Assembly (NCBI GenBank): GCA_963753725.1
Contig: CAVWDI010000012.1
Coordinates: forward strand, 56,320 to 120,319
DNA from: an uncultured Chloroflexia bacterium
GTDB taxonomy: Bacteria > Chloroflexota > Anaerolineae > Anaerolineales > UBA4823
Length of the DNA stretch: 64,000 bases
Direction: 5' to 3'
The notes below the pieces were generated by a model. It was given only the letters and a program-made list of their open reading frames with translations, did no database searches and was not told the origin of the DNA. Positions 27 through 29,475 of this stretch are shown here, in pieces. Numbering within the stretch: position 1 is the first letter of the stretch; each line of letters opens with the position of its first letter. Both the position numbers and the translations under genes were made by a program.

Positions 27-1043
27 TTAATACCTGATCCTGGGATCTAAAAACCCATATAGAATGTCAACAAATAGACTGGTAGCTGCCACTAAAAGTG
101 CAAAAAACAGGATTACACCTTGCACGGTGGCAAAGTCGCGGTCGTAAATCCGGTCGACCACCAGGCGACCCATACCAGGCCACGAAAATGTAGTCTCAGT
201 AAGAATGGCGCCAGCTAATAAAAGAGCGAATTGTAATCCCAGCAAAGTAACGATAGGAATAAATGCATTTCGCAGGCCGTGTCTGTATACTAATACACGC
301 TCACGGATACCACGCGCCCGACCTGCAGTAATGAAATCCTGCTGCAAGACGTCAAGCATATTGGCGCGTGTCAATCGTGTGAATACGCCCGCCAATACAA
401 ATCCCAGCGTTATGCATGGAAGGATCAAGTGGATTAATGCATCTTTTAGCAACACCCAATCTCTCATGAGCACCGCATCAACTGTATATAAGCCGGTGAT
501 TGTTACTTCTGGGGTCATACCGGGGCTCAAACGCCCAGAAACAGGCAGCCAGCCTAACTGGGCTCCAAAAAACATTTGCAGCATTAATCCAAGCCAAAAG
601 ATCGGCATGGCATATAAAATGATACTCGCTACACGGATCGAATAGTCCGCGGTGCTTTTCCGGTGTTGGGCGGCGTAGGCTCCAGAGAACGTACCCACAA
701 TCGCAACAATCATTATTGAATAGATGGCTAATTCAACCGTTGCAGGAAAGAACGTTTTTATTTCATCAACCACAGGCACAGGACGAACCATGGAATCTCC
801 CAGGTCGCCTGTAAAGACTCCGGTAAGGAATTCAATATATTGTAAATGCAGCGGCTTGTCTAATCCCAGGGTAGCGCGAAATGCATCTAGTTGTTCTTCC
901 GAGGCGCCTTCGCGCATAATGGCTACCGCAGGATCACCTGGAATAACTCTGAGGATAAAAAATACAAAGGTTACCAGAATAATAACCATTGGAACTGTAA
1001 GCAGTATTCGAACAACAATATAACGGCGTAAATTCGCTGACAT
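27..1043 (-). CDS. ABC peptide/nickel-type transporter permease (DppB/OppB family)
   Basis: 338-aa ORF. N-terminus MSANLRRYIVVRILLTVPMVIILVTFVFFILRVIPGDP is typical of DppB/OppB permeases. Multiple hydrophobic segments, GAGG Shine-Dalgarno upstream of ATG 1043, same strand and directly downstream of the binding-protein gene. Confidence 0.9.
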   Translation of the reverse strand: MSANLRRYIVVRILLTVPMVIILVTFVFFILRVIPGDPAVAIMREGASEEQLDAFRATLGLDKPLHLQYIEFLTGVFTGDLGDSMVRPVPVVDEIKTFFPATVELAIYSIMIVAIVGTFSGAYAAQHRKSTADYSIRVASIILYAMPIFWLGLMLQMFFGAQLGWLPVSGRLSPGMTPEVTITGLYTVDAVLMRDWVLLKDALIHLILPCITLGFVLAGVFTRLTRANMLDVLQQDFITAGRARGIRERVLVYRHGLRNAFIPIVTLLGLQFALLLAGAILTETTFSWPGMGRLVVDRIYDRDFATVQGVILFFALLVAATSLFVDILYGFLDPRIRY

Positions 1044-1204
1044 GTTTACCTCGTTATCGATAAACTTAGATCAGGATTGGTGTGAAACACGAAGGGGTAA
1101 AAAATCATGAGGCGAGGAGCCTCGAGTTCAACTCCTCGCCCCAAAAAGATAGTATACCTACTTAGTTTTACAAAAAGAATGTAGATATCTTCTTCCGACT
1201 GTTA

Positions 1205-3312
1205 CTATTTCTCGATTAAGAAGTAGTGCAGCAGGGCAATTGGATCGAGCACAACACCGGAAACGCCATCCTGGTAGCCGACAAACAGCTTACCTTGTGC
1301 AATCGGAACGAATGGACTCTCGGGAACCCAGTAGTCCTGGATCTCTTCCAATATGCTGATACGTTTTGCTTCGTCCAACTCTCCAGCCTGCGCTTCTAGC
1401 AGCGCATCCATCTCGGGGTTGTTGTAATTCGAGCCCGACCATGATGCTGGCGAATGTGCGAAAACATTGGTGTAGTTATCCGGATCGAGGTAATCTGGAT
1501 ACCAACCCAAGAGCGAGAACGGCAGTTCGCCTGCTCGACCGGCGTCGCGGTAGGCGGCCCATTCCAGGAATTGCAGGTTAGCTTCGATTACACCGCTTGC
1601 TTCGAGCTGTTGTTTCAAGACTGCCGCAACATCGGGCTCTGTATCGCCATAGTGAGTTGGGCTGTACCACAGGTCCAAAACCAGAGGATTGTCCTCGGTA
1701 AATCCAGCTTCGGCTAATAGAGCCTTACCTTCCTCAACGTTTTCAGTTCCTTCGTAGGTGGGCTTAAATCCCAGAGAATCCAGGAGGCACCATTGAATAC
1801 AAGGGCAGCTTGATCCCTTGCCAACCCAGGTCAGTTAATTCCTCACGGTTGATCAATTGGGCCACACCAAGACGCACGTTAGGATTATCAAACGGTGGTG
1901 TGGTTGCGTTATAAACAATATAACGAATCTCTGTACCGCCGGCTGTTTCGATTGTTATCCCTTCTGTTCCGGACAAGGCATCCAGATCAGCGGGGGCAGA
2001 GACTCTTCCAGGCGACATCAACCTCTTCATTCTGTAAGGCTAATGCCAATGTTGGAGAATCTGCGAAGTAACGAACGATGACTTTCGCCGATTTGGGCGC
2101 TTCACCATAGTAGGTTGGATTGGCTTCGAAGATAGCTTCCTCACCTTCGGTGAATGATGTCAATACGTAAGGTCCGATTCCGCAGGCCGTGTTGGTCGTA
2201 TCGGCTTCGGTGGCTGACCATTGAGCGGGATTGAGTATCTTCCACGGATTGGTAGCAATCAATTGAGGACCAAACGGATATGTATCATTGAAATTGACTA
2301 CAACTGTCAAATCGTCAACTTTTTCGACGCTGTCCACATAGGCGGAATACAGGAAACCGGCGTTTTCACCTGCAGCCTCGTTGATCGGGATAATCCGTTC
2401 CAGTGAGAACACAACCGCATCGGCATTCAAAGGTGATCCGTCAGGGAAGGTTACGCCTTCGCGCAGTTTGAAGGTGTATGATTTTCCATCTTCACTTACT
2501 TCATAGCTTTCTGCGAGCGCGAATTCAACCTCACCAGCTGTTCCGGGAGTGATATTGAGCAAACCGTCGGCGCACTGGTGGAATAACTCCCAGTCATGGA
2601 AGCTGTATACCCAGGCTGATTCGAAGCTCGACCAGCTGTCGGTTGTACCGATAACCAGTTGGTCTGCCATAGCCTCTTCAGAAGGGGGTAAAAGGACAGA
2701 GTCGATGACATGTATGACACCATTGGTGCCTTCGATGTCAGTAGCGACAACCATTGATTCATTGACCATCACATTTTCACCATCAAGAGAAACTGCAACT
2801 GTGGCTCCTGATAAAGTCTCAACTTCCTGACCGTCAAGACCGACTACATCAGCTGCCATTACTTTACCGTCCACTACATGGTAAAGTAATACATTGGTCA
2901 AAGCCTCTTTATCGGCTAATAAACCATCAAGCGCACCCTCGGGGAGTGCAGCAAATGCGTCATTGGTGGGAGCGAATACTGTGAAGGGACCATCACCCTG
3001 TAGCGTTTCGACCAATCCAGCTTCGGTCAAAGCGGTAACCAATGTAGAGAAGTCCGCATTACCAACGGCTATATCAACGATAGTTTCGCCTTCTTCCATG
3101 GGCTCTTCAGCTGCCGGTTCTTCAGCAGGTTCTTCGGCTGCCGGTACTTCAACAGTCTCTTCTGCAGCTGGTTCTTCTTCCATAGGTTCTTCTGCAGCCG
3201 GCTCCTCAGCGGGGGCTTCGGTTGGCGCAGGTGTCGGTTGTGCACAAGCGCCCAATATCATGCTGAGCACTATAACGGTCACGCTGAGGACAAAAAATAG
3301 TTTTCTATTCAT
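1205..3312 (-). CDS. Lipoprotein: fasciclin (FAS1) domain fused to ABC family-5 solute-binding protein (frame interrupted twice, likely homopolymer indel artefacts)
   Basis: ORF fragments 1987-3312, 1764-2030 and 1205-1678 read through as one protein. It has a signal peptide with lipobox LSMILGAC, an acidic P/A/E-rich linker, a FAS1 motif block ([11 protein letters not shown] ... [12 protein letters not shown]), then an SBP_bac_5-like sequence to the end. Junctions reconstructed at the G5 run 1992-1996 and the C3 run 1770-1772. AAGGAGG RBS before ATG 3312. Confidence 0.8.
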
Positions 3313-3618
3313 TCTTACTCCTCCTTTAGAAGTAATTTTTGGTTTTTGAAAATATTTTATCTGAATGTTTACGTGGAATATCTATTGAGATTTCACCTCC
3401 TTTCATCAAACACACAATTTCTCAACTTAAACATCCCTCAATTATATGTATTGGCGGTAATATGTCAACCAATTATCAATTTATTTTGGAATGTTGTTAT
3501 GAGTTCGAACGCATAAACAAAATGGAGGAAGATTATCCAAAATTTGGATACACCTGCCACTTTATTAAATTAAAGCCTACATAGTATAATCTAAAACTGA
3601 AATAATGGAGGTGTAAAT

Positions 3619-3861
3619 ATGGCGGAAAAAAATTGGGAGCCGATCAAGATCAGCTTCTGCCACCATTTAGGCCAGGAGGTCGCTTTAGAGGCCGAATTAA
3701 TCTACCCTGCAGAATTCCTCCCGGATCAGAATCCGCGCGTCACTGCCCACCGCTGCTCTCGTGCAGTTGACTGTAATTTAGACGGAAAGCCCAGCTGTAT
3801 CTGGGCAGGCACTAATCCCGCATTTGATCCATTTAGCGAACTTCAAGAAAAAAGCAAATAA
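3619..3861 (+). CDS. Small Cys/His-rich hypothetical protein (80 aa)
   Basis: ATG 3619 preceded by GGAGGTG at good spacing. The product contains CHH ... HRCSRAVDCNLDGKPSC. Followed by a strong hairpin terminator. No family recognised. Confidence 0.55.
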   Translation: MAEKNWEPIKISFCHHLGQEVALEAELIYPAEFLPDQNPRVTAHRCSRAVDCNLDGKPSCIWAGTNPAFDPFSELQEKSK

Positions 3862-3924: not shown

Positions 3925-3976
3925 AAATAAAATACCCGGCACATATGGATTTACGTATGTGCCGGGTATTTGTTTA
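3925..3976. terminator. Bidirectional intrinsic terminator between convergent genes
   Basis: Perfect 15-bp stem AATACCCGGCACATA (3931-3945) / TATGTGCCGGGTATT (3956-3970) with a 10-nt loop, A-rich 5' flank and TGTTT 3' flank. It sits between the stops at 3861 (+) and 3995 (-). Confidence 0.6.
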
Positions 3977-3994: not shown

Positions 3995-6190
3995 TTATTC
4001 CATTAATTCAGATTCACTATAGATGTCAAATCCCTTTATCCTGGTAATTGCGCCTACAGCAGCGTTTGAAACGATCACCGGAGGCGGATAATTTGCGAGC
4101 AAGACCGAAAAATCCGGATTATCTTCCGCGGCAGACAATATCTCGGGATCCGCTTCCAGGGCGGCTTGTATACTGCCCTCCTGGAGCGCCTGGAAACGCA
4201 CCTGTGCATCGGGGATCACTTTCCAAACGATCTGATTGATTTGAGGAGGACCGTACCAGTAGGTTTCATTGGTAGTGAGCGTGATCTGGTCATCTAGCAA
4301 CCATTCGCTGAATTTGAATGGTCCTGTACCGACACAACCTGCCTCATTTCCACCGTATCCATCTTCAAAAGTATCTAATGCGGTTGGACTTGAAATGGAG
4401 AATGCTTCCAATGCCAGAATATCCAGGAAGTCACCATTCGGCTTTTCGAGGGTGAATTTAACGGTGAGATCATCGATTTTACTTTCAGTCTTGATTTGGC
4501 TTAACTCATCGAAACCACCCCAACTCTCTTGATAAGCATCAAAGGATCGATCCTGAAAATGTTGTGGGTGGTTTGAGGACCGCCAGCGTTCAAAATTAAA
4601 AACAACCGCATCGGCATTAAAAGGGGTGCCATCATGGAATTGCACGTTTCCCCGAAGGCTGCAGGTCCATTCTGTTTGGGTTTCGTCTGCCGTACAGCCA
4701 GTTGCTAAAGCGGGCTGTGGGGTGGTATCGCCAGGTTGGAGGGTATACAGTCCTTCTAAACATAATACGCTGACACGAATACTTTCCTGGTCGCTGGCAA
4801 CCGCGGGGTCTAGCCAAATTGAGTCAGAACCACGACCGATAGTCAGCGAAGTTATGGGGCTTTCTTCGACGATAAATTCAAGAACCGGTTCAGTATCATC
4901 ACTTTGTGGGATTTCTTCAATCTCAACTTCTTCAAATGAGGCAAAAGCAGTGCTTACCAGTAAGTAGTTAACGCCTTGATTGATTAAGATAAAGAAAGCC
5001 ACCGAGAACAAGCACAGGGTTATCATCCCAAATCCCAAAAAAGCCAGCCTTGGACGACCTTTGCTGAGATCTCCATTTAAGGCTGTATCCAGATTGTCCA
5101 GGGATTCTGGTTCCGGGTTATCCTTTTGATCGGCGTCATTTTCCGCAGTCATACTTAAATTATCTTCTGGGATAATCTCCTGCTCGAAAGGTATATTGAA
5201 CTTGATTTTAAGCTGCCGGGCGGCTGACTTGCCTTCAATCCCAAGCATATTCAAGGCTGCTAAACTCCGCTCGACTTCGTCCCATCTGTTTGCTGCAGCC
5301 AGTGCGCCCGCTTCCCCCATTAACCACTCAACTTGATTTGAATGGTTACCTGTTGGACTGCTGCTTCCTTTTTGAAGTCTCTCAAGTAATTCAAAGCCGT
5401 CCCATGGTCTTTGACTGGGATCATTTGATACCATTTGAGCAACCAGATCGTCGAGACAATGTGGAAGATCAACTCGCAAGGAAGCCGCATGGGTACCAGG
5501 AGACTGTTGGCTGTATTTACTTCCAGTTAAGAGTTCAAACAGCACACATCCGGCTGCATAGATATCGATACTTGGTCTTGGGTACCGTAGTTCCCCATTT
5601 TTTCGCTCTGGAGGTTGGTAGTCCAATGATTCTGGGGTGAATTCCTGAAATGAGTTGTTGATAATTCCCTCATAACGTAGTTTTGAGGTAAGAGCAGTTC
5701 CTATCCCGCTGATTTTTAGGTCACCTTTCACAGTGATGAACGTGTTTGAAGGGGTCAGGTTCAAGTGTAAGATGCCGTGATTGTGGAGGTCCTTTAATCC
5801 AGCTGCGATCTGGATTCCAATTTGACGAGCTTCCTGCGCTGAAAGTTGTTTGCCGCTTGCACGTGTGGCAGCCATCTGGTCCGCCAGACAAAATCCAGGG
5901 ATGTATTCTGTAAAAATGTATAAGTCCTCAGTGGATAGGATTGATCTATAAACTTGAAGTAAATGAGGGGAATCCAGGCTTGCGGACAGGTTAATCTCTC
6001 GCTGCAATTGGTCCTGGAGCGTTCTGGCCGCGTCGATGTTTTGACGGAATTTTTCTATGTTCAACGTGGTAATGGAAACTTTTCGACGCTGTCTGAGGTC
6101 AAAAGCCCGGAAAGTCGACCCATTTTTGCCATTCTCGATTAAACCATCGATCCTGAATTCATCGAAAAGGATTTCACCAGTCCTGAGCAT
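3995..6190 (-). CDS. Membrane-anchored Hanks-type pseudokinase fused to a truncated family-5 solute-binding ectodomain
   Basis: Kinase-fold motifs are present (REINLSA, DIYAAGCVLFELLTG, DPSQRP) but catalytic residues are replaced: VAIK->VSIT, HRDLKPxN->HLNLTPSN, DFG->SGIG. One TM helix (LAFLGFGMITLCLFSVAFFILI). The C-terminal ~270 aa resemble the N-terminal part of SBP_bac_5. I prefer ATG 6190 (AAGGGA RBS) over the TTG at 6250 used by the ORF track. Confidence 0.8.
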   Translation of the reverse strand: MLRTGEILFDEFRIDGLIENGKNGSTFRAFDLRQRRKVSITTLNIEKFRQNIDAARTLQDQLQREINLSASLDSPHLLQVYRSILSTEDLYIFTEYIPGFCLADQMAATRASGKQLSAQEARQIGIQIAAGLKDLHNHGILHLNLTPSNTFITVKGDLKISGIGTALTSKLRYEGIINNSFQEFTPESLDYQPPERKNGELRYPRPSIDIYAAGCVLFELLTGSKYSQQSPGTHAASLRVDLPHCLDDLVAQMVSNDPSQRPWDGFELLERLQKGSSSPTGNHSNQVEWLMGEAGALAAANRWDEVERSLAALNMLGIEGKSAARQLKIKFNIPFEQEIIPEDNLSMTAENDADQKDNPEPESLDNLDTALNGDLSKGRPRLAFLGFGMITLCLFSVAFFILINQGVNYLLVSTAFASFEEVEIEEIPQSDDTEPVLEFIVEESPITSLTIGRGSDSIWLDPAVASDQESIRVSVLCLEGLYTLQPGDTTPQPALATGCTADETQTEWTCSLRGNVQFHDGTPFNADAVVFNFERWRSSNHPQHFQDRSFDAYQESWGGFDELSQIKTESKIDDLTVKFTLEKPNGDFLDILALEAFSISSPTALDTFEDGYGGNEAGCVGTGPFKFSEWLLDDQITLTTNETYWYGPPQINQIVWKVIPDAQVRFQALQEGSIQAALEADPEILSAAEDNPDFSVLLANYPPPVIVSNAAVGAITRIKGFDIYSESELME

Positions 6191-6312
6191 CTTATTTCTT
6201 CCCTTGATCTTTATTACGAATATCCGGTTAATAGGAAATATTACACTCAATTAAGGTGCAAAAAAGGTGCCAATATTCTAAGGAGAAAAGTTTGTGGGTT
6301 GCGAAGTGATAT

Positions 6313-11350: not shown

Positions 11351-12173
11351 ATGGGAACTCTGTACCTGGTAGCAACTCCGATTGGCAACCTGGAGGATAT
11401 CAGCGCACGCGCCCTGCGAATACTTAATGAGGTTCAGATCATCGCAGCAGAGGATACACGGCGAACGGGAAAATTACTGAAGCATTTCGAAATACAAACA
11501 AAACTTACCAGTTATCACGAACACAGCAAGTATTCAAAAATAGATTCAATCCTTGAATTATTGGTTGAAGGGGATGCTGCTTTGGTTTCTGATGCAGGTA
11601 CACCAGTATTGAACGATCCCGGTTACAAACTGGTGCGGGCAGTTCTGGATGCGGGTTACGAGGTCAGTCCCATTCCGGGTCCCAGCGCACCGGTTTCCGC
11701 ATTAGTGGCATCCGGGTTGGCGTGCGATTCATACCTTTACCTGGGGTACATTCCGCGTAAGGAGAATGACCGCCAGCGCCTGCTGGTGGAAGTAAGTGAT
11801 ATTACTCACACATTGATCTTCCTGGAAACCCCCAAGCGTATACTGGAATCCTTTGATGATTTATTGAAAGTATTGGGCGACAGGCAGATCGCGGTGGCGC
11901 GAGAGTTGACCAAATTGCATGAAGAAATCTACCGCGGATCCATCTCAGGGGCAATCCAGCATTTTTCAACTAAACCGCCGCGCGGGGAGTTCACAATAAT
12001 CCTGGCCGGAAATGATACACTTCCACGAATATGGAGCGTGGAAGAGGTTGAGGATGGAACTTTTAAATCAAATTGGAAAAGGCGAACCGGCAGCAGCCAT
12101 TGCAAAACAAGTGGCGGGAATTTCGGGTTGGTCACGCCGGGAAGTTTACGATCTATTAAATAGCTTGGGTTAA
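11351..12173 (+). CDS. rsmI: 16S rRNA (cytidine1402-2'-O)-methyltransferase RsmI (C-terminal frame break near 12055, likely indel artefact)
   Basis: MGTLYLVATPIGNLEDISARALRILNEVQIIAAEDTRRTGKLL is the RsmI N-terminal signature. After ~12055 the listed frame becomes nonsense, while the +1 frame reads ELLNQIGKGEPAAAIAKQVAGISGWSRREVYDLLNSLG and stops at 12171-12173. Confidence 0.85.
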
Positions 12174-13766: not shown

Positions 13767-14540
13767 ACACTGGTTTTCTTTTCCAGGTCAGCGCGCAATA
13801 TTTCAAGCTGGTGCGCTTTATCCACGTCCATTCCCACCTCCGCATAAGGACACAAGACCGCTTCGCCCGTGATGTTCAAACGCTTTTCCACCTGCTTTAC
13901 CGCCGAATTTAAATCAAAGCGGCGGGTGAGTAAATACAGCAAAGTGTCGTAGCCGATCAACGAGGCTTGTTTAAACACATTCTTGCGTGCATCCATAATT
14001 TTTCTGTACAGCTCATCGTCTCCAGTGAGTTTTGACATTCGAACGACGTTCATATCGCCGCCGCATACTTCCACGTCTTTCAAACGGGTGTATGAGCGGT
14101 TGGAATCAGGGAACCTGGCTTCCATAACCTGGCGGGTTATGATGCTGTAATATAAATCCTTGTCCGATTTGGTTGAATTTTTTACCACCCAATCGATGCT
14201 CTCTGCTGTAATTGCCGGTATATCTGAAGAGACGATTAATGCATGAGTAGAATTCTGGATTTTGCTTCGCTAATTCTATAACTCCAATGCGGACATTTTT
14301 TAATAAATCGTTTTCGGAAGGTATGTAAGCGTTGATTTTTGAACAGGTCAAGTTGTTTTCCGGAGATAAACCTACAATAACTACGTTCGTTACCGTCTCA
14401 GCCTGTTCGAGGGCATCCAGCACCCATTGGATCATGGGTTTGCCGCCGATATCTACCAAAGCTTTGGGTTCTCCTTGAGTATATTGGAAAAGGGGCTCGT
14501 CTTGTTTTGGAATTCCACCGGATAGTACGACTGCATCCAT
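13763..14540 (-). CDS. MobA-like NTP-transferase family protein (one frame break near 14260, likely indel artefact)
   Basis: N-terminus MDAVVLSGGIPKQDEPLF ... KALVDIGGKPMIQWVLDAL is a nucleotidyltransferase G-loop. Fragments 14106-14540 and 13763-14188 join via ...GVIELAK / QNSTHALIVSSDIPAITAESIDW around an A4 run. Confidence 0.75.
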
Positions 14541-14628: not shown

Positions 14629-15522
14629 TTAAATCTGGGGTTTGAAATCTAGCTGGTGAAGCATCTCGCTTAGTTCTTCGAGAGTAAGCGCACGGTTCTT
14701 ACCTGAAACTGCGACCAGAGCCGCTTCCATCATGTTTGTACCAAATGATCGCCCGTCAAGCACGGGTGTGCTGGTGACCAGATATTTACAGCCAAGTTCT
14801 CGAAACAGCTGGACGTCATCAGGTGTCGTGGTATTGGTGGCGATTACTTTTCCTTCCATATTGTCGGGCATATGTCGTTTTACATAGTGGCAATCTCCTG
14901 CCACAACAGTCGCCCATTGGTAATAGTCCTCATATTTTGGAATGCGGACTTCTTGTTTTTCACCGGTAGGATAGAGCATTTCAAACGGTAAACGACCAAC
15001 AACGGGCATAATAAGAGCGGCAATCCGTTTAAGGCTTTTCTCCGAGCGGACCGCGATTGGGATTCCCAAACCGAACATAATATCGCCGAACACACAATCG
15101 TAACCGCCATCCAGGAATGATTTCGACATACCCCACCGATCGGCTCCCAAAGCGATGAAGGCTTTCCGTCCACTTTCATCCAGATAAGCACCGATATTGG
15201 ATTCCATGAAAGGCGCCATGCGATTCTCAAGCGTATTTTTAAGCCCGGCGCCGTCAACGACCGGCGTTTCCTTGATATAACGAACCATTGGCTTTACAGA
15301 ATATAGTGGATACCATTTTTTATCTACCATCAGTCCCAGGTCAGCGCCGCCAACGCCGAATGCATCTACCTGGTCATCTAATTCTTTATATAACTGTGCG
15401 GCTTTTTCCATATCGCCATCTGTCCCGATGCGCTCAATCCGCACCATTTCACCCAACAGCTCGATTTCAACCGCTTTATCACGTTTAGACGAACCGATGC
15501 TCACACTCACTGCGCGTTTCAT
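14629..15522 (-). CDS. Conserved protein of unknown function (family often auto-annotated as quinate 5-dehydrogenase-like)
   Basis: 297-aa ORF with good coding character, first gene of a three-gene minus-strand unit. The family assignment is from memory only and the function is unknown. Confidence 0.6.
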   Translation of the reverse strand: MKRAVSVSIGSSKRDKAVEIELLGEMVRIERIGTDGDMEKAAQLYKELDDQVDAFGVGGADLGLMVDKKWYPLYSVKPMVRYIKETPVVDGAGLKNTLENRMAPFMESNIGAYLDESGRKAFIALGADRWGMSKSFLDGGYDCVFGDIMFGLGIPIAVRSEKSLKRIAALIMPVVGRLPFEMLYPTGEKQEVRIPKYEDYYQWATVVAGDCHYVKRHMPDNMEGKVIATNTTTPDDVQLFRELGCKYLVTSTPVLDGRSFGTNMMEAALVAVSGKNRALTLEELSEMLHQLDFKPQI

Positions 15523-15802
15523 TATTGTTTTACTCCTTCAGGAAGTCCATAAATGCCAGGTATAAATTACAGTTGCTGAATAAAACCCAATTCAATCGAT
15601 AAATAATAACCAAGGTCAATTATTTTTAAACCAACTTGAGTATACCCTCATAAATAAGTTTTCGAAAGACTTAGTAAGTCTTATACGCTTTTCAGAACCA
15701 TTACCTTCAAGAGAATTGGCTAAAATAAAGCTGTAAATGCAGTGAGGGTGATATAATTTTGACAGGCACAATTCAAGAACATTCCTAATGCAGGAGGATT
15801 GA

Positions 15803-16747
15803 ATGACACTTCCAAACTACGCTTTTTTTAAGGGCAGTATCGTGCCGTACGAGCAAGCAAAGGTGGGGGTATTGAACCATTCGTTAAATTATGGGACTGC
15901 CGCTTTCGGTGGAATAAGGGCATATTGGAACACTGATAACGAAGAACTGTACCTCTTTCGGCCTGCAGACCATTACAGGCGGTTCTTAAATTCAACGAAA
16001 CTTTTGTGTATGCAGTTTGAACACACCCCTGAAAGTTTGATACAGGTGACCATCGAATTGTTGAAGAGGGAGGGACACCGCTGCGATGTATACATCCGCC
16101 CATTAGCATACATGGCGGATGAGATGATTGGGGTTAAACTTCACGATCTGGAAAATGAAATTTCAATTGTAAGTATCCCATTCGATCGTTATGTTTCAAA
16201 CGATACCAATGCGCATGTGACATTCTCCAGCTGGCGGCGTATCGAAGATAATGTGATTCCAGCACGAGGTAAAATCAGCGGTGCATATGCTAATTCGGCG
16301 TTTATCAAGACAGATGCCCTGCGGTCAGGTTTTGATGAAGCGTTAGTATTAAACTTTGACGGCCATGTTTCGGAAGGCAGCGCTGAGAATATATTTATGA
16401 TGAGGGATGGTGTACTGGTGACGCCACCGGTCACGGATAATATATTAGAAGGTATTACACGGCGCACTGTTATCGAACTCGCCCAATGTGAATTGGATCT
16501 TACCGTCGTCGAACGACCAATCGACCGCACAGAGGTTTACATTTGCGATGAATTTTTCATGACCGGGACAGCCGCGCAGGTCACAGCAGTGACACGCGTC
16601 GACCACCGGCCGATCGGGTCCGGCATAATGGGACCAATAACAAATAAACTGCGTGGATTATTCGAGGAAGTGGTTTACACGCGCAGTGCCAAATACCGGC
16701 AGTGGAACCTACCCGTGTATGAGCAGGTTCTGGAGCAGGTCCTCTAA
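15803..16747 (+). CDS. ilvE: Branched-chain amino acid aminotransferase (class IV)
   Basis: 314 aa, colinear with E. coli IlvE (HSLNYGTAAFGGIRAY, YIRPL, EGSAENIFMMRDGVLVTPP, LEGITR, FMTGTAAQVTAV). AGGAGG RBS before ATG 15803. Confidence 0.9.
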   Translation: MTLPNYAFFKGSIVPYEQAKVGVLNHSLNYGTAAFGGIRAYWNTDNEELYLFRPADHYRRFLNSTKLLCMQFEHTPESLIQVTIELLKREGHRCDVYIRPLAYMADEMIGVKLHDLENEISIVSIPFDRYVSNDTNAHVTFSSWRRIEDNVIPARGKISGAYANSAFIKTDALRSGFDEALVLNFDGHVSEGSAENIFMMRDGVLVTPPVTDNILEGITRRTVIELAQCELDLTVVERPIDRTEVYICDEFFMTGTAAQVTAVTRVDHRPIGSGIMGPITNKLRGLFEEVVYTRSAKYRQWNLPVYEQVLEQVL

Positions 16748-17289
16748 GTTAATTCAATAATTTCCCCGCAAACCTCCCCTTCGTCCCGGATAAACAGCAA
16801 TCCGACACTCGGGGTGACTCCGATTTTTGGAACGTGTGGGGAACCAGGGTTAAAGAGCAGTTGACCATCCATCCTGCGATTCAGGGAGATATGCCCGTGC
16901 CCGAATACGATCACATTCGTTTCGGGAAATGTATTAAGCAGCCAAGGGATGATGTGTTCGTGGTTGTATCCGTGAATGGTGTAGTGCACCTTATCCAGCA
17001 GGTACCTGGCGAGTTTGCCGTGCCCGTGAGTCATGCCAATTTTTATACCTTTAAATTCAAAGGTTTGTTTGAAAGGCAGTTGGCGTAAAAGCAGCCAATC
17101 CCGGTTACCCTGCACGGCATATACCGGGGCAATGGTCTCCAGTTCTTTGAGCACATTTGGCGTTGAGACATCACCCGCATGTAATATGGTCGATACACTT
17201 GCGTCTTTAAATACAGCCGTAATCTCGGGGTTCAGTGCGTGTGCCCGGTCGGGGATATGTGTATCTGCGATTACACCAATAGTGATCAT
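16744..17289 (-). CDS. YfcE/MJ0936-family metallophosphoesterase
   Basis: 181 aa. DTH, HAGD, GNRD, HGH and GHGH metal-ligand motifs in canonical order. Confidence 0.85.
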   Translation of the reverse strand: MITIGVIADTHIPDRAHALNPEITAVFKDASVSTILHAGDVSTPNVLKELETIAPVYAVQGNRDWLLLRQLPFKQTFEFKGIKIGMTHGHGKLARYLLDKVHYTIHGYNHEHIIPWLLNTFPETNVIVFGHGHISLNRRMDGQLLFNPGSPHVPKIGVTPSVGLLFIRDEGEVCGEIIELT

Positions 17290-17364
17290 TTATACAAAAA
17301 TTAGGAGGAGATATTCAGTTGGCCAGATATTGTTCAACTATCACGCAGAAAATCTGAGGTTCTT

Positions 17365-17436
17365 TTAAACCTCGCAAGGTAAGATATTTTCAGATAAAGA
17401 CGTCAATATTATAGCTGAGCAAACAATATTCTTCAT
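17365..17436 (-). CDS. Candidate 23-aa small ORF (MKNIVCSAIILTSLSENILPCEV)
   Basis: ATG 17436 sits 6 nt downstream of a GGAGGAGGAG run (17443-17452). The stop at 17365-17367 overlaps a GAGGTT/AACCTC hairpin followed by a U-rich tract. Below the ORF-track size cut-off and unsupported by homology. Confidence 0.25.
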   Translation of the reverse strand: MKNIVCSAIILTSLSENILPCEV

Positions 17437-17554
17437 GTCTTCTCCTCCTCCCAAATAAGGCAGTCTCTACAATTGAGGCCGCCTTATTTGATTCTCGAGG
17501 ATTGGTTTACCCTTACGCGGTGGGAATCGATAACCTTCCAGGAAATCGGATTGA

Positions 17555-18859
17555 TTATTGCGCGGCTGCAGCCTCTGGTTGAGCGGCGGGTGGTTCTTCT
17601 GAGTCCCGGAAAAACAGCCAGACAAATAAAGTCGCAATTGCATACAGCGCTGAAGTCACAATAAATAAAGGAGTGAATCCATGCGTTTCCTGGACAATTC
17701 CAGAGATATATGGACCGAAAGTCCAACCCAACTGCCAGGCAGTCTCCTTGACACTAACAACTGTTGCCTGTTCTCTTTCTTGAACCTGTTCCATGGAAAA
17801 AGTATCATAAAGCGGTACTGACATGTTCATGAGGGCAGAGCGGATCAAGAAAGCCAGCGCTGCCAAAAAGAAATAGGGTGAGAAGCCCAACAAAAGCATA
17901 AATAGCAGGCTGAGCCATTGGGTGAATACAACCGCCCGAATTTTGGTGCCCATCTTTATCGCCAGCCTTGGTCCAATAAATGCTCCGATACCTGTAAACA
18001 GAGAGGATAAAGCGAATAGGATACCCAGCGCTTGATCGGAAATGTGGAACTTATCGTGAAAAAAAATGTTCATGTAAGGAATGAGGATCGCTGCCCCAAA
18101 CCCAATAATAAGATTAGGCAGTGAAAGCTTGATGGTAATGGGACGAGTGATTGTATCTTTCAGTGAGTGAAGAATCATACTCAGGGATTGGTCACTGGTT
18201 GTTTGCTCCTCTGGTTCTTGATTAAAGTTTTTATGGTTAGTCCGTAATAGGGCAAGGGGTATTAATGATAGCGAACCCAGGAAGACTGCCGTTAATAGTA
18301 CCGCTCTGTAAGCCAACGCACTGTCTGCAGGTACTCCCAACAATGACCCGAATAACGACGGCATTTGACCAGCAAACAGGTTGCCAAATGTTCCTGAAAG
18401 CGTAATTAAGGCAAAATTGAGACTGAATAATAAAGTCCGGTTCTGGCTGTTAGAAGCCTTCATCATAAAGGGCGGCTGGCTGATAAAGTAAAGGGTATGA
18501 CCGCCGCCGCTGATGAACGCCATCAGGAGGATCAGGTTAGGTTTTAAAACGATAACTTCCAGACCTGAAGCGGCGACATATATCACCACCCCCCACAACA
18601 TGGCTTTTCTACGCCCGATCCTGTCAGAAAGCACACCCAGCGGGATACCCAGGAGTAATGCGGATGCAGAAGTTACCGATGTAACCAGCCCCAGGAATTC
18701 CCTGCTGTAGCCGAGTTCGAGAATATAGAAATTAAAAAACAGCCACCAAATGCTGTATACGATCCCATTGATCAGTGTTGCCAGCAAAAACAAGCGCGCC
18801 GGCCTGTTGAAACTTTGGATAAGCCGGAATTGAGATCGAAGTGAATTTCCTAAATTCAT
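17555..18859 (-). CDS. MFS transporter
   Basis: 434 aa, 12 hydrophobic segments, GVLSDRIGRRK loop 2-3 motif of the major facilitator superfamily. Confidence 0.85.
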   Translation of the reverse strand: MNLGNSLRSQFRLIQSFNRPARLFLLATLINGIVYSIWWLFFNFYILELGYSREFLGLVTSVTSASALLLGIPLGVLSDRIGRRKAMLWGVVIYVAASGLEVIVLKPNLILLMAFISGGGHTLYFISQPPFMMKASNSQNRTLLFSLNFALITLSGTFGNLFAGQMPSLFGSLLGVPADSALAYRAVLLTAVFLGSLSLIPLALLRTNHKNFNQEPEEQTTSDQSLSMILHSLKDTITRPITIKLSLPNLIIGFGAAILIPYMNIFFHDKFHISDQALGILFALSSLFTGIGAFIGPRLAIKMGTKIRAVVFTQWLSLLFMLLLGFSPYFFLAALAFLIRSALMNMSVPLYDTFSMEQVQEREQATVVSVKETAWQLGWTFGPYISGIVQETHGFTPLFIVTSALYAIATLFVWLFFRDSEEPPAAQPEAAAAQ

Positions 18860-29401: not shown

Positions 29402-29475
29402 TGGGCGGAACAGGACTCGAACCTGCGACCTCTGCGATGTCAACGCAGCGCTCTAACCAGCTGAGCTATCCGCCC
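29402..29475 (-). tRNA. tRNA-Val (anticodon GAC)
   Basis: Hand-folded cloverleaf: acceptor GGGCGGA/TCCGCCC, D arm GCTC-AGCTGGTTA-GAGC, anticodon arm CTGCG-TTGACAT-CGCAG, variable AGGTC, T arm GCAGG-TTCGAGT-CCTGT, discriminator A. CCA is not encoded. Confidence 0.9.

Follow-up and report, generated by a model that had tools for sequence, protein, structure and literature searches.

The gene at 3995-6190 (-) of the window, the whole 64,000-nucleotide stretch of DNA analysed here, encodes a membrane protein that has been kept by evolution, with a kinase domain inside the cell and one lobe of a solute-binding protein (SBP) outside. By sequence definition, the kinase domain is a pseudokinase. We predict that the product is a functional, non-catalytic, receptor-like membrane protein, and we put the probability of this reading at roughly 0.6. 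Bacterial pseudokinases are many and almost uncharacterised, and no described family has an SBP-type ectodomain. Receptor fusions of a kinase and an SBP are known, with complete binding domains; here a degraded kinase is joined to a single lobe, under strong purifying selection. The gene bears on how dead kinases signal in bacteria and on whether a lone periplasmic-binding-protein (PBP) lobe may be stable and functional, which is relevant to single-lobe-ancestor models of periplasmic binding proteins.

The features of the gene and its neighbourhood are listed in Table 1. Counted from the ATG, the open reading frame (ORF) specifies 731 aa. The ORF and two-domain architecture given in a preliminary description of this DNA were reproduced by translation and by Pfam (Pkinase and SBP_bac_5), and the strings quoted there (REINLSA, DIYAAGCVLFELLTG, DPSQRP, VSIT, HLNLTPSN, SGIG, and ENGKNGSTF) are all present in the translation. 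The strong terminator noted after the gene was also recovered, at -25.4 kcal/mol (z = -7.8), with none of 200 shuffled sequences equally stable. Two bases of its stem are unpaired near the loop, and it escaped a simple scanner. A hairpin lies in the same place 3' of the orthologue in a third lineage (L002). With this terminator, the pseudokinase gene forms a transcription unit of its own. In an Rfam scan, a tRNA at 29402-29475 was the sole match in the window, and no riboswitch or other RNA element turned up close to the gene.

Table 1 Features of the pseudokinase gene and its neighbourhood, in window coordinates.
Feature	Position (strand)	Description
Whole gene	3995..6190 (-), stop codon included	731 aa, bitopic: pseudokinase, linker, TM, single-lobe SBP5, tail
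Ribosome-binding site AAGGGAAG	6198..6205 (-)	7 nt 5' of ATG; read off sequence
Cytoplasmic Hanks-type kinase fold, residues 1-283	5342..6190 (-)	Alignments, AF2, Foldseek, dN/dS 0.135
Juxtamembrane helical hairpin, residues 285-330	5201..5338 (-)	AF2 helices 285-315 and 318-330, pLDDT 58-78
Acidic spacer, predicted disordered, residues 336-379	5054..5185 (-)	AF2 pLDDT <50
Single TM helix, residues ~380-403	4982..5053 (-)	K-G-R-P-R just before
Extracytoplasmic stalk, residues 404-447	4850..4981 (-)	Between TM helix and first SBP strand
Single-lobe SBP5 ectodomain, residues 448-696	4103..4849 (-)	Lobe 1 (domains I+II), DppA/OppA type
C-terminal tail, residues 697-731 and stop	3995..4102 (-)	Replaces crossing point into domain III of full SBPs
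Intrinsic terminator of pseudokinase gene	3925..3971 (-)	Stem 16-17 bp and U-run
Convergent 80-aa ORF, Cys/His-rich	3619..3861 (+)	Between pseudokinase gene and transporter operon
Sigma-70-type promoter TTGACA-16-TATAAT	3441..3468 (-)	Fasciclin-SBP5/Dpp-like operon; 12/12 consensus
Fasciclin-SBP5 lipoprotein gene	1205..3312 (-)	Three ORFs via two +1 frameshifts (~2000, ~1768)
DppB-type permease of neighbouring operon	27..1043 (-)	Not orthologous to sister lineage's DppB

Kinase domain, linker and membrane helix

Pfam Pkinase (PF00069) matches residues 17-259 with an E-value of 8e-27 and 94.7 bits against a gathering cut-off of 31.7. The AF2 model of the kinase core has pLDDT values mostly above 90, and Foldseek comparison with PknB structures gave TMt 0.80-0.82, which indicates a bilobal kinase fold. 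We assigned the catalytic positions by alignment with PknB and the 19 nearest active kinases. The β3 Lys, present in PknB and in all 19 relatives, is T41 (codon 6068-6070) in both the window protein and its orthologue. HRD reads H142-L143-N144 (N144 codon 5759-5761); the relatives have HRD in 18 cases and HRN in one (P0275), so that the Arg replaced here by L143 is kept in 19/19. The catalytic-loop Lys is likewise retained in every relative and is T146 in the window protein. DFG has become G162-I163-G164 (G162 codon 5705-5707), with the Asp present in 19/19 relatives. The earlier claim that all three key catalytic positions are substituted is borne out by this alignment; the HRD Arg and the catalytic-loop Lys are replaced as well. 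The glycine loop (ENGKNGSTF), previously called degenerate, has lost its first Gly (E-N-G-K-N-G), but the second and third are kept.

A pseudokinase is defined by sequence as a kinase fold without at least one of the VAIK-Lys, HRD-Asp, and DFG-Asp (bioRxiv 10.1101/2025.01.12.632604). The preliminary pseudokinase call is correct under this standard definition, with all three triad residues lost from a kinase domain whose dN/dS is 0.135. The same substitutions occur in the sole full-length orthologue, at 79% identity; 'conserved' here refers to that one sequence, because full-length sequences number two.

The structural-core residues of the domain are intact. The αC Glu65, catalytic-loop Asn149, APE-Glu195, αF Asp209, and Arg261 are all kept, and the activation loop is full length (residues 162-195) and retains a Ser that is near-invariant in active relatives. 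The glycine loop also contains a conserved Lys (G-K-N-G). With this Lys, two glycine-loop Gly, Asn149, and the αC Glu remaining, the domain may bind nucleotide. These same residues would suit a non-canonical enzyme that binds nucleotide and catalyses phosphotransfer or some other reaction through alternative residues, as WNK, SelO, and SidJ do. We consider such an enzyme very unlikely, since the base Asp, metal-binding DFG Asp, HRD Arg, and catalytic-loop Lys are gone together, and bacterial pseudokinases degraded in all three motifs are nearly always without ATP binding (PMC12599244).

PknB L33D/L33E mutants are named in the PDB titles of the structural matches. We take PknB R10-D76/L33 to be the back-to-back dimer interface, which maps to E11, Q34, and R81 of the window protein. 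All three equivalents are changed (relatives have K/R for E11 and D for R81), so a PknB-style heterodimer with an active kinase is not obviously available. At the L001 locus, genes for an active kinase, FHA, or PP2C are absent within 10 kb of the pseudokinase gene. The 64-kb window, searched for kinases only, holds no second kinase.

The helical linker and one TM helix described earlier agree with both hydropathy and AF2 helices. Kyte-Doolittle scores reach 2.53 in 19-residue windows starting at 380-394, and an AF2 helix at 381-417 spans the TM segment. Selection along this part of the chain is uneven: dN/dS is 0.12 for the hairpin region (residues 284-335) and 0.07 for the stalk, with constraint relaxed in the spacer (0.54).

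The single-lobe ectodomain and its tail

Pfam SBP_bac_5 matches residues 490-701 over profile positions 1-196 of 368 (E 1.7e-45; 156.2 bits against a cut-off of 32.4), and the NCBIfam models for GsiB, NikA, and DppA match partially, far under their equivalog cut-offs. PDB sequence matches cover only residues ~19-265 of the 507-535-aa DppA/HbpA/GsiB-type proteins. Both results agree with the earlier view that the ectodomain corresponds only to the first ~270 residues of family-5 SBPs. Prediction also answers whether this region folds as an SBP lobe. AF2 gave pLDDT 89.3 and pTM 0.87, and Foldseek matched the model to DppA, GsiB, and GbpA with TMq 0.71-0.76 and TMt 0.40-0.46, covering ~45% of the target structures. 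Domain III, which forms the second lobe, is missing, so the ectodomain is not a two-lobe SBP that closes by a hinge. The protein stops 35 residues past the last lobe-1 strand, and no SBP-like sequence was found 3' of the stop codon. Within the tail, 13 residues from P704 on are invariant across three lineages, and dN/dS is 0.105; AF2 confidence is low here because homologues are few.

In DppA and OppA, ligand-terminus contacts come mainly from domain III. Because clamping a ligand takes more than one lobe and the peptide-terminus residues of domain III are missing, the ectodomain most likely acts by protein contact, which would mean either self-association or docking onto the surface of an SBP or a permease from a Dpp-type system. 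It may sense either a ligand or a partner. A more specific possibility is that two lobes, from two chains or two proteins, close on a small peptide-like ligand and so bring about pseudokinase dimerisation. We regard this as unlikely, as the domain that supplies most ligand-terminus contacts in DppA/OppA is absent and the conserved tail may merely cap the exposed face. The lobe is nevertheless strongly conserved (dN/dS 0.14) and folds confidently, and the E11 and R81 interface equivalents are charge-swapped and not randomised, which is compatible with a homodimer-specific interface, though the charge-swap reading comes from three alignment columns in two sequences. Bacterial receptor kinases are also generally regulated by dimerisation, and the MviN pseudokinase forms back-to-back dimers (PMC12599244).

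Orthologues, selection and the origin of the gene

The orthologue P0002 is 79% identical over the same 731 aa, with no indels and with the same substitutions and C-terminus. The third lineage, L002, is represented by a partial sequence of 58% identity that has the same tail and stop codon. The whole gene compared with P0002 gave dN/dS 0.148 at dS 0.78, with no indels over 731 codons. By part, at dS 0.6-0.9, the values were 0.135 for the kinase, 0.14 for the SBP lobe, and 0.105 for the tail; comparison with L002 gave pN 0.26 and pS 0.79. By these codon comparisons, all folded parts are under purifying selection.

A decaying remnant or assembly artefact, meaning either a functionless inactivated fusion or a truncation through sequencing errors, is effectively refuted. 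Compared with the sister lineage, at least three genes nearby (fasciclin-SBP5, with two frameshifts, NTP_transf_3, and TP_methylase) are frameshifted in the window assembly, and several short 'half' SBP5 database matches are just frameshifted full-length genes. However, the pseudokinase ORF is colinear with its orthologue, with zero indels, and dN/dS is 0.10-0.14 across every folded part, tail included. The same stop occurs in three or four independent assemblies, and what lies beyond it is a strong terminator and not SBP-like sequence. The preliminary description had already argued that the truncation is no frame artefact, and this stands, given the tail and stop shared by P0002 and L002 and the purifying selection. 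Short SBP5 proteins on long contigs (P0128, P0129, P0140, P0150, and P0151) were considered as natural half-SBPs and rejected; because their C-termini are out-of-frame, they are frameshifted full-length genes.

The family is rare. Among 1.84 billion representatives, searched exhaustively, the same architecture turned up only in P0002 and the partial P0121. No further member appeared in a scan of 185,579 GTDB species genomes or in a word-index sequence search, and a scan of JGI metagenomes added only L027, which belongs to the L001 lineage and runs off the end of its contig. No database record was found for the window's own protein. The gene is known from three related lineages only, all uncultured Anaerolineales. 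Candidate kinase-SBP fusions P0246, P0286, P0339, P0347, and P0362 were set aside, as they lack a kinase and are of the SBP3-SBP5, PBP1-SBP5, or tandem SBP5-SBP5 type. In the literature, we found no account of a Pkinase+SBP_bac_5 fusion or of a pseudokinase fused to a solute-binding protein.

The gene is flanked on one side by an aminotransferase gene and on the other by a small conserved ORF, with a Dpp-like ABC operon further downstream. The 80-aa ORF is 95% identical in L001, is also present in L002, and has 48 homologue clusters but no Pfam or NCBIfam match. It is conserved in Anaerolineales, including at the same locus in genomes without the pseudokinase. In four such loci (L055-L058), the order is aminotransferase, small ORF, and SBP5-DppBC(DF), with only 29-104 bp at the gene's place. 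Since related Anaerolineales genomes have the same locus without the gene, it is a lineage-specific insertion, and the locus offers a before-and-after picture of gene birth.

The Dpp-like operon adjoins the gene in all lineages, and the earlier statement that the gene lies next to a Dpp-like transporter is correct as to adjacency; yet the gene is a separate, terminated unit, with the 80-aa ORF and the operon promoter, conserved in L002, in between. In the window genome, the adjacent operon is non-cognate. The fasciclin part of the neighbouring lipoprotein is ~93% identical to that of L001, falling to ~25% past residue ~213, a breakpoint right after the fasciclin domain. The window DppB is 44-46% identical to the DppB proteins of L001 and L055, a pair that shares 87% identity, while flanking genes are 81-91% identical to their sister-lineage counterparts. 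Judged by these identities, another paralogue has taken the place of the adjacent ancestral transporter in the window genome. The SBP5 module of the window neighbour shares 28% identity with the ectodomain and is a different paralogue. Docking onto, or competition with, the neighbouring fasciclin-SBP5 protein, as proposed earlier, is not supported given this identity, the two frameshifts, and the replaced transporter. A partner encoded in the neighbouring operon is doubtful in the window genome, where the adjacent transporter is a non-cognate paralogue.

The ectodomain is 52% identical (E 1e-91) to residues 212-466 of the adjacent fasciclin-SBP5 of L001. In an NJ tree, the three ectodomains make up a clade of their own, whose sister group is the A-type SBPs of the locus's ancestral Dpp-like transporter. 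The ectodomain is only ~50% identical to these A-type SBPs, which are 70-84% identical among themselves. The kinship to the neighbour sensed in the preliminary description is real at this deeper level. The missing domain III is not supplied by the 'C-half-first' SBP5 of L001, which is of B type, and the ectodomain derives from A type. We propose that part of the operon's SBP gene was duplicated and fused to a member of the Chloroflexota 'RPWDG' receptor-kinase family, and that the resulting gene became fixed as a pseudokinase after a first burst of divergence. The ectodomain could equally have come from an older, unsampled paralogue and not from the neighbouring gene itself.

Birth beside a Dpp-like operon, out of that operon's SBP lineage, would suit a transporter-coupled regulator, whose tethered lobe sits on DppB or DppC and competes with the free SBP or reports transporter occupancy. 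SBP lobes are permease-docking surfaces in type I importers, as in the DppABCDF cryoEM structure 8z1z, which is among the structural matches. We nonetheless find this role improbable, because the window's adjacent permease is only 44-46% identical to A-type DppB and the gene is transcribed separately, with its own terminator. As the pseudokinase is 79% conserved despite this divergence of the adjacent permease, the partner would be elsewhere or the contact promiscuous.

Predicted role and comparison with known systems

For the non-catalytic receptor-like protein that we favor, the dead kinase domain would serve as a scaffold or allosteric partner, or would accept phosphate from an active Ser/Thr kinase. 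More tentatively, a single SBP lobe might serve as a receptor ectodomain that signals by association, induced by a partner or a ligand, and not by Venus-flytrap closure, via a dead kinase scaffold born by partial SBP-gene duplication. This combination is speculative and on balance doubtful; if true, the protein would define a class of pseudokinase sensors derived from transporters that has not been described before, and would show a stable 'half' periplasmic binding protein in a living organism. The same logic is seen in the animal natriuretic-peptide receptors/membrane guanylyl cyclases, which have a PBP-fold ectodomain, a single TM, and a regulatory kinase-homology domain. These are eukaryotic proteins in which the type I PBP fold is complete with both lobes and a cyclase output domain forms the C terminus, and the fusion is not homologous.

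Bacteria commonly have pseudokinases in which all three motifs are degraded, and these act non-catalytically, as in MviN and EssB/YukC (PMC12599244). Like the window protein, M. tuberculosis MviN/MurJ (Rv3910, ActPs3) sits in the membrane, has inside the cell a Hanks pseudokinase whose three motifs are all degraded, and exposes a binding-type domain on the extracytoplasmic side. Its pseudokinase is a phosphorylation-dependent scaffold that recruits FhaA, not an enzyme, and L750/D793 are given for its back-to-back interface (PMC12599244). MviN differs in being actinobacterial, in its fusion to a lipid II flippase, and in a large deletion within its activation loop. That loop is full length in the window protein, which has one TM helix and carries an SBP5 lobe. 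EssB/YukC, a pseudokinase of type VIIb secretion, is likewise bitopic: it crosses the membrane once, with a pseudokinase fold at its cytoplasmic N terminus and a further domain outside the cell, and it plays a structural part (PMC9600267; PMC12599244). It belongs to a T7SS and its extracellular domain is unrelated; the window protein, by contrast, is a clear PF00069 match.

Of the described bacterial pseudokinase families (ActPs1-3, GLW, CP1, DYD, and DLHK), we compared the window protein with ActPs1-3, GLW, and CP1 by their published hallmarks, and it has the hallmarks of none of these three groups. They are GLW replacing HRD (GLW), an activation-loop deletion of ~40 residues (ActPs3), a COG3899 fusion without TM (CP1), and Act1/Act2 actinobacterial ancestry (ActPs1/2) (PMC12599244; bioRxiv 10.1101/2025.01.12.632604). 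The window protein instead reads HLN, keeps its activation loop at full length, has a TM helix, and lacks a COG3899 domain; its nearest relatives are Chloroflexota-type active kinases.

Those nearest relatives of the kinase domain are the 'RPWDG' receptor kinases (P0003-P0005, P0258, and others), at 30-36% identity. They share with it the RPWDG motif past subdomain XI, the activation-loop Ser, and a TM helix after the kinase. Unlike the window protein, they retain the K, R of HRD, K, and D[LF]G (P0275 has HRN), and their ectodomains are FGE-sulfatase, SH3, or other, never SBP.

Receptor Ser/Thr kinases with a full SBP ectodomain have the same order of parts, as in the metagenomic P0095 (Pkinase-TM-SBP_bac_5); P0105 from Polyangium carries the NCBI name 'bifunctional serine/threonine-protein kinase/ABC transporter substrate-binding protein'. 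In P0095, K, HRD, and DFG are intact and SBP5 profile positions 1-354 of 368 are covered, whereas the window protein has none of the catalytic residues and covers only 1-196. The two are 27% identical over 30% of the query and are not close relatives. The window protein is thus a kinase-TM-SBP fusion, but one without an active kinase or a complete clamping SBP. Compared with the DppA/GsiB/HbpA-type family-5 (cluster C) SBPs, its ectodomain has their lobe-1 sequence and predicted fold, with no domain III, no hinge closure, and a novel conserved tail. DppA-type SBPs use a signal peptide or lipobox, while this lobe is anchored through the C-terminally oriented TM helix of a kinase-fold protein.

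Domain architecture of the pseudokinase

The gene comprises 731 codons in an intact reading frame, with AAGGGAAG just upstream of its ATG start. Its product gave two Pfam matches, a Pkinase domain (94.7 bits against a cut-off of 31.7) and an SBP_bac_5 domain (156 bits), the latter covering profile positions 1-196 of 368 only; the segments between them are listed in the table. We put the probability that the protein is a dead kinase and a single SBP5 lobe in one membrane protein at about 0.9. The sequence strings quoted in the preliminary description were all found in the translation, and the strong terminator it reported after the stop codon is borne out by a hairpin energy of -25.4 kcal/mol (z = -7.8), which none of 200 shuffles equalled. 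A simple terminator scanner gave no call at this site.

Features of the pseudokinase, its gene and the surrounding loci (window coordinates unless a contig is named)
Feature	Position	Strand	Remarks
Pseudokinase gene	3995-6190	-	731 codons
Pkinase match	residues 17-259		
Helical hairpin	residues 285-330		downstream of kinase core
Acidic disordered spacer	residues 336-379		
Transmembrane helix	hydropathy peak about residues 385-403		KGRPR directly before segment
SBP_bac_5 match	residues 490-701		
Terminator of pseudokinase gene	3925-3971	-	16-17-bp hairpin and U-run, 3' of stop codon
80-aa ORF	3619-3861; L001 12326-12568; L002 949-1182	+; -; -	convergent with pseudokinase gene
Sigma-70 promoter	3441-3468	-	perfect TTGACA-16-TATAAT, upstream of fasciclin-SBP5 operon; conserved in L002
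Fasciclin-SBP5 lipoprotein gene	1205-3312	-	three ORFs
SBP5 gene ending sister-lineage operon	L001 19851-21539; L027 8596-10395	+; +	C-terminal half first
tRNA gene	29402-29475	-	sole Rfam match at gathering threshold in the entire 64-kb window

The kinase domain was aligned with M. tuberculosis PknB, Stk1-type kinases and its 19 nearest relatives, retrieved by searching databases twice. The beta3 lysine position is T41, the HRDxKxxN motif reads H142-L143-N144-L-T146-P-S-N149, and the DFG position is G162-I163-G164. The alignment thus bears out the earlier classification as a pseudokinase by loss of the beta3 Lys, HRD Asp and DFG Asp. Among the relatives, the beta3 Lys, HRD Arg, catalytic-loop Lys and DFG Asp are present in 19 of 19 and the HRD Asp in 18. 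The glycine loop had also been described as degenerate; its first Gly is indeed lost, but the loop is less degraded than stated because only that Gly is missing. Structural landmarks are retained (alphaC Glu65, His142, Asn149, APE-Glu195, alphaF Asp209 and Arg261), as is activation-loop Ser180, which is near-invariant among active relatives. In an AF2 model of residues 1-445, pLDDT is mostly >90 over the kinase core, and the best structural matches of the modelled domain are PknB kinase domains (TMt 0.80-0.82). Its closest relatives (30-36%) are active receptor kinases of one Chloroflexota family, which is marked by an RPWDG motif and whose ectodomains are mostly FGE-sulfatases. One otherwise intact member of that family, P0275, is the exception at the HRD Asp: it reads HRN (catalytic Asp to Asn), keeps the beta3 Lys and DLG, and carries an SH3_3 ectodomain. 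P0275 may represent an independent step towards a pseudokinase within the RPWDG family.

The ectodomain had been said to resemble only the first part of family-5 binding proteins, and matches to solved structures (HbpA, DppA, GsiB/YliB, NikA and OppA) indeed cover only about residues 19-265 of these 507-535-residue proteins. Modelled alone, as the preliminary description had proposed, residues 431-731 gave a confident SBP5 lobe fold (82-sequence alignment, mean pLDDT 89.3, pTM 0.87), with low confidence confined to the last ~30 residues. A Foldseek search of the model against the PDB returned DppA, GsiB and GbpA with a TMq of 0.71-0.76 and a TMt of ~0.45, indicating that it superposes on about half of each target. 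The ectodomain thus corresponds to domains I and II of the cluster C fold and lacks domain III. In DppA and OppA, peptide termini are held by side chains from domain III.

Among 1.84 billion 50%-identity representatives, a HMMER search found this architecture only in P0002 and the partial protein P0121, the next matches being ordinary SBP5 proteins or ordinary kinases, and no comparable protein was found in one genome per GTDB species. Multi-stretch matches inspected as possible kinase-SBP fusions were rejected as multi-SBP proteins without a kinase. Likewise, "short SBP5" proteins on long contigs proved to be frameshifted full-length genes rather than natural half-SBPs. A general kinase-SBP5 fusion is already known, since the metagenomic protein P0095 joins a kinase with intact catalytic residues to a complete SBP5 (profile positions 1-354 of 368). 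What is new is the combination of a dead kinase with a single SBP lobe.

Orthologues and the state of the assembly

The window assembly is not clean, which gives weight to orthologue evidence for this ORF. Compared with L001, a 176-kb ENA metagenome contig that encodes P0002, it is frameshifted in the fasciclin-SBP5 gene (two sites), NTP_transf_3 (~14251-14253) and a TP_methylase, RsmI-like gene (~12045-12052), and four frameshifts within 15 kb suggest indel errors. The two in the fasciclin-SBP5 gene are +1 shifts near 2000 and 1768, at the short homopolymer runs CTCTGCCCCCGCT and TCTGGGATTTAAG; as its reading frames are otherwise clean, they reflect either assembly indels or very recent inactivation.

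An artefactual or decaying pseudokinase gene is nevertheless ruled out. P0002 is 79% identical to the window protein over a gap-free alignment of 731 residues, has the same C-terminus, and carries the same catalytic replacements, the point for which a check of orthologues had been proposed earlier. L027, a JGI contig, repeats the L001 lineage. A third lineage, 58% identical, is represented by L002, a 1.4-kb Logan contig broken inside the ectodomain, whose protein ends in the homologous tail ...PMIVSNSALGMVSNILGYDLYYEEDLSE, followed by a stop and then a hairpin. Accessions of the source samples are ERZ27256798, SRR32071871 and Ga0180437. With this tail in three lineages, the view that the truncation is no frame artefact holds. 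Nei-Gojobori dN/dS between the window and L001 (dS 0.6-1.2) is low in the kinase (0.135), helical linker (0.12), stalk (0.07), SBP lobe (0.14) and 35-residue tail (0.105), and 0.54 in the acidic spacer. In addition, the three lineages share 13 invariant residues in the stretch that runs from P704 to the end of the protein. The invariant tail and low dN/dS indicate that the ectodomain truncation is a selected feature.

Origin of the gene and its neighbouring transporter

Ectodomain residues 441-696 share 52% identity (E 1e-91) with residues 212-466 of the L001 fasciclin-SBP5 lipoprotein, whose gene adjoins the pseudokinase orthologue at L001 12863-15130, with DppB/DppC at 15337-17630. Neighbour joining groups the three ectodomains in one clade, sister to the A-type SBPs, the clade of the ancestral Dpp-like transporter at this locus. 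Four related Anaerolineales contigs (L055-L058) have the order aminotransferase / small ORF / SBP5-DppBC(DF)-CoaE, with no called ATPase genes in L058, and just 29-104 bp at the pseudokinase site. Since they have the same locus without it, the pseudokinase gene is a lineage-specific insertion. Between L001 and L055, identity is 87% for DppB, 83% for the N-terminal half of the A-type SBP and 77% for the aminotransferase; against this calibration, the ~50% identity of the ectodomain to every A-type SBP implies either rapid divergence after partial duplication or descent from an older paralogue within that clade. The locus documents neatly, and with good support, the birth of a gene for an unusual pseudokinase receptor.

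The small ORF encodes 80 residues and lies between the aminotransferase gene and the Dpp-like operon in all contexts examined, with or without the pseudokinase. It occurs widely in Anaerolineales, with 48 homologue clusters at 53-98% identity; the only named homologue is from that order, and neither Pfam nor NCBIfam gave a match. The product has a conserved Cys/His pattern (C14-H15-H16, H44-x-C46, C52, C60) and probably binds zinc.

Identity between the window and L001 is 81-91% for flanking housekeeping proteins and 79% for the pseudokinase. The fasciclin-SBP5 lipoprotein is ~93% identical up to residue ~213, where the fasciclin domain ends, and ~25% beyond, and the DppB downstream is 44-46% identical. 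This drop indicates that the SBP5 module and permease were replaced by a different paralogue in the window lineage, with a recombination breakpoint near residue 213. The orthologous part (compared over window 27-3312, minus strand, and L001 12863-16389) comprises the promoter region, signal peptide, acidic linker and fasciclin domain. Docking onto, or competition with, this lipoprotein had been proposed for the pseudokinase; the idea is weakened in the window genome because the adjacent SBP5 has been swapped and is 28% identical to the ectodomain. A swap beside a conserved pseudokinase also shows that the latter is retained irrespective of the adjacent transporter's identity. The gene is its own terminated unit, separated from the transporter operon by the small ORF and the operon promoter.

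In the sister-lineage SBP5 that ends the operon, residues 65-273 resemble OppA profile positions 313-519 and residues 359-553 NikA positions 57-257. The gene is either a circular permutation of SBP5 or what is left of an SBP5-SBP5 tandem. Relatives of the A-type SBP (P0132, P0286, P0339, P0347, P0362, P0246) are often multi-domain polyproteins, including SBP5-SBP5 tandems, PBP1-SBP5-SBP5, SBP3-SBP5 and fasciclin-SBP5. Shuffling of binding-protein modules seems to be unusually free in this group.

Possible function and relation to known families

Taken as a whole, the observation in the preliminary description is confirmed and its interpretation partly supported, and any account of how the protein works is tentative. 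Venus-flytrap closure would be impossible for a single-lobe ectodomain. The conserved tail starts exactly where a full SBP crosses into domain III, and may cap the face exposed by its absence. Most economically, the protein would be a receptor or scaffold without catalytic activity. Its ectodomain would make protein contacts, by self-association or with the SBP or permease of a Dpp-type system, and its kinase fold would be a phospho-acceptor, a docking platform or an allosteric partner. MviN and EssB/YukC are characterised bacterial pseudokinases that work as non-catalytic scaffolds or partners, and bacterial pseudokinases degraded in three of three motifs are described as relatively common and nearly always without ATP binding (PMC12599244).

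At the equivalents of PknB R10, L33 and D76, residues of the back-to-back interface, most active relatives have K/R, L and D, and the pseudokinase has E11, Q34 and R81. From these residues, the interface could be lost, or could persist as a charge-swapped, homodimer-only version. Indirect support for the interface role of these PknB residues comes from L33D/L33E mutant PDB entries and from a statement on MviN L750/D793 (PMC12599244).

Judged by hallmarks published in a 2025 review and atlas, the protein fits none of the GLW, ActPs3 and CP1 pseudokinase families, and its nearest relatives differ from the Act1/Act2 ancestors of ActPs1/2. Although a member of the Pkinase fold family, it lacks the defining catalytic triad, and its ectodomain, an SBP_bac_5 member by homology, lacks the two-lobe clamp. 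This pseudokinase receptor occurs in only a few uncultured lineages. Its nearest functional analogies are MviN and EssB; in its logic it resembles animal natriuretic-peptide receptors, in which a TM helix links a PBP-fold ectodomain to a kinase-homology domain.
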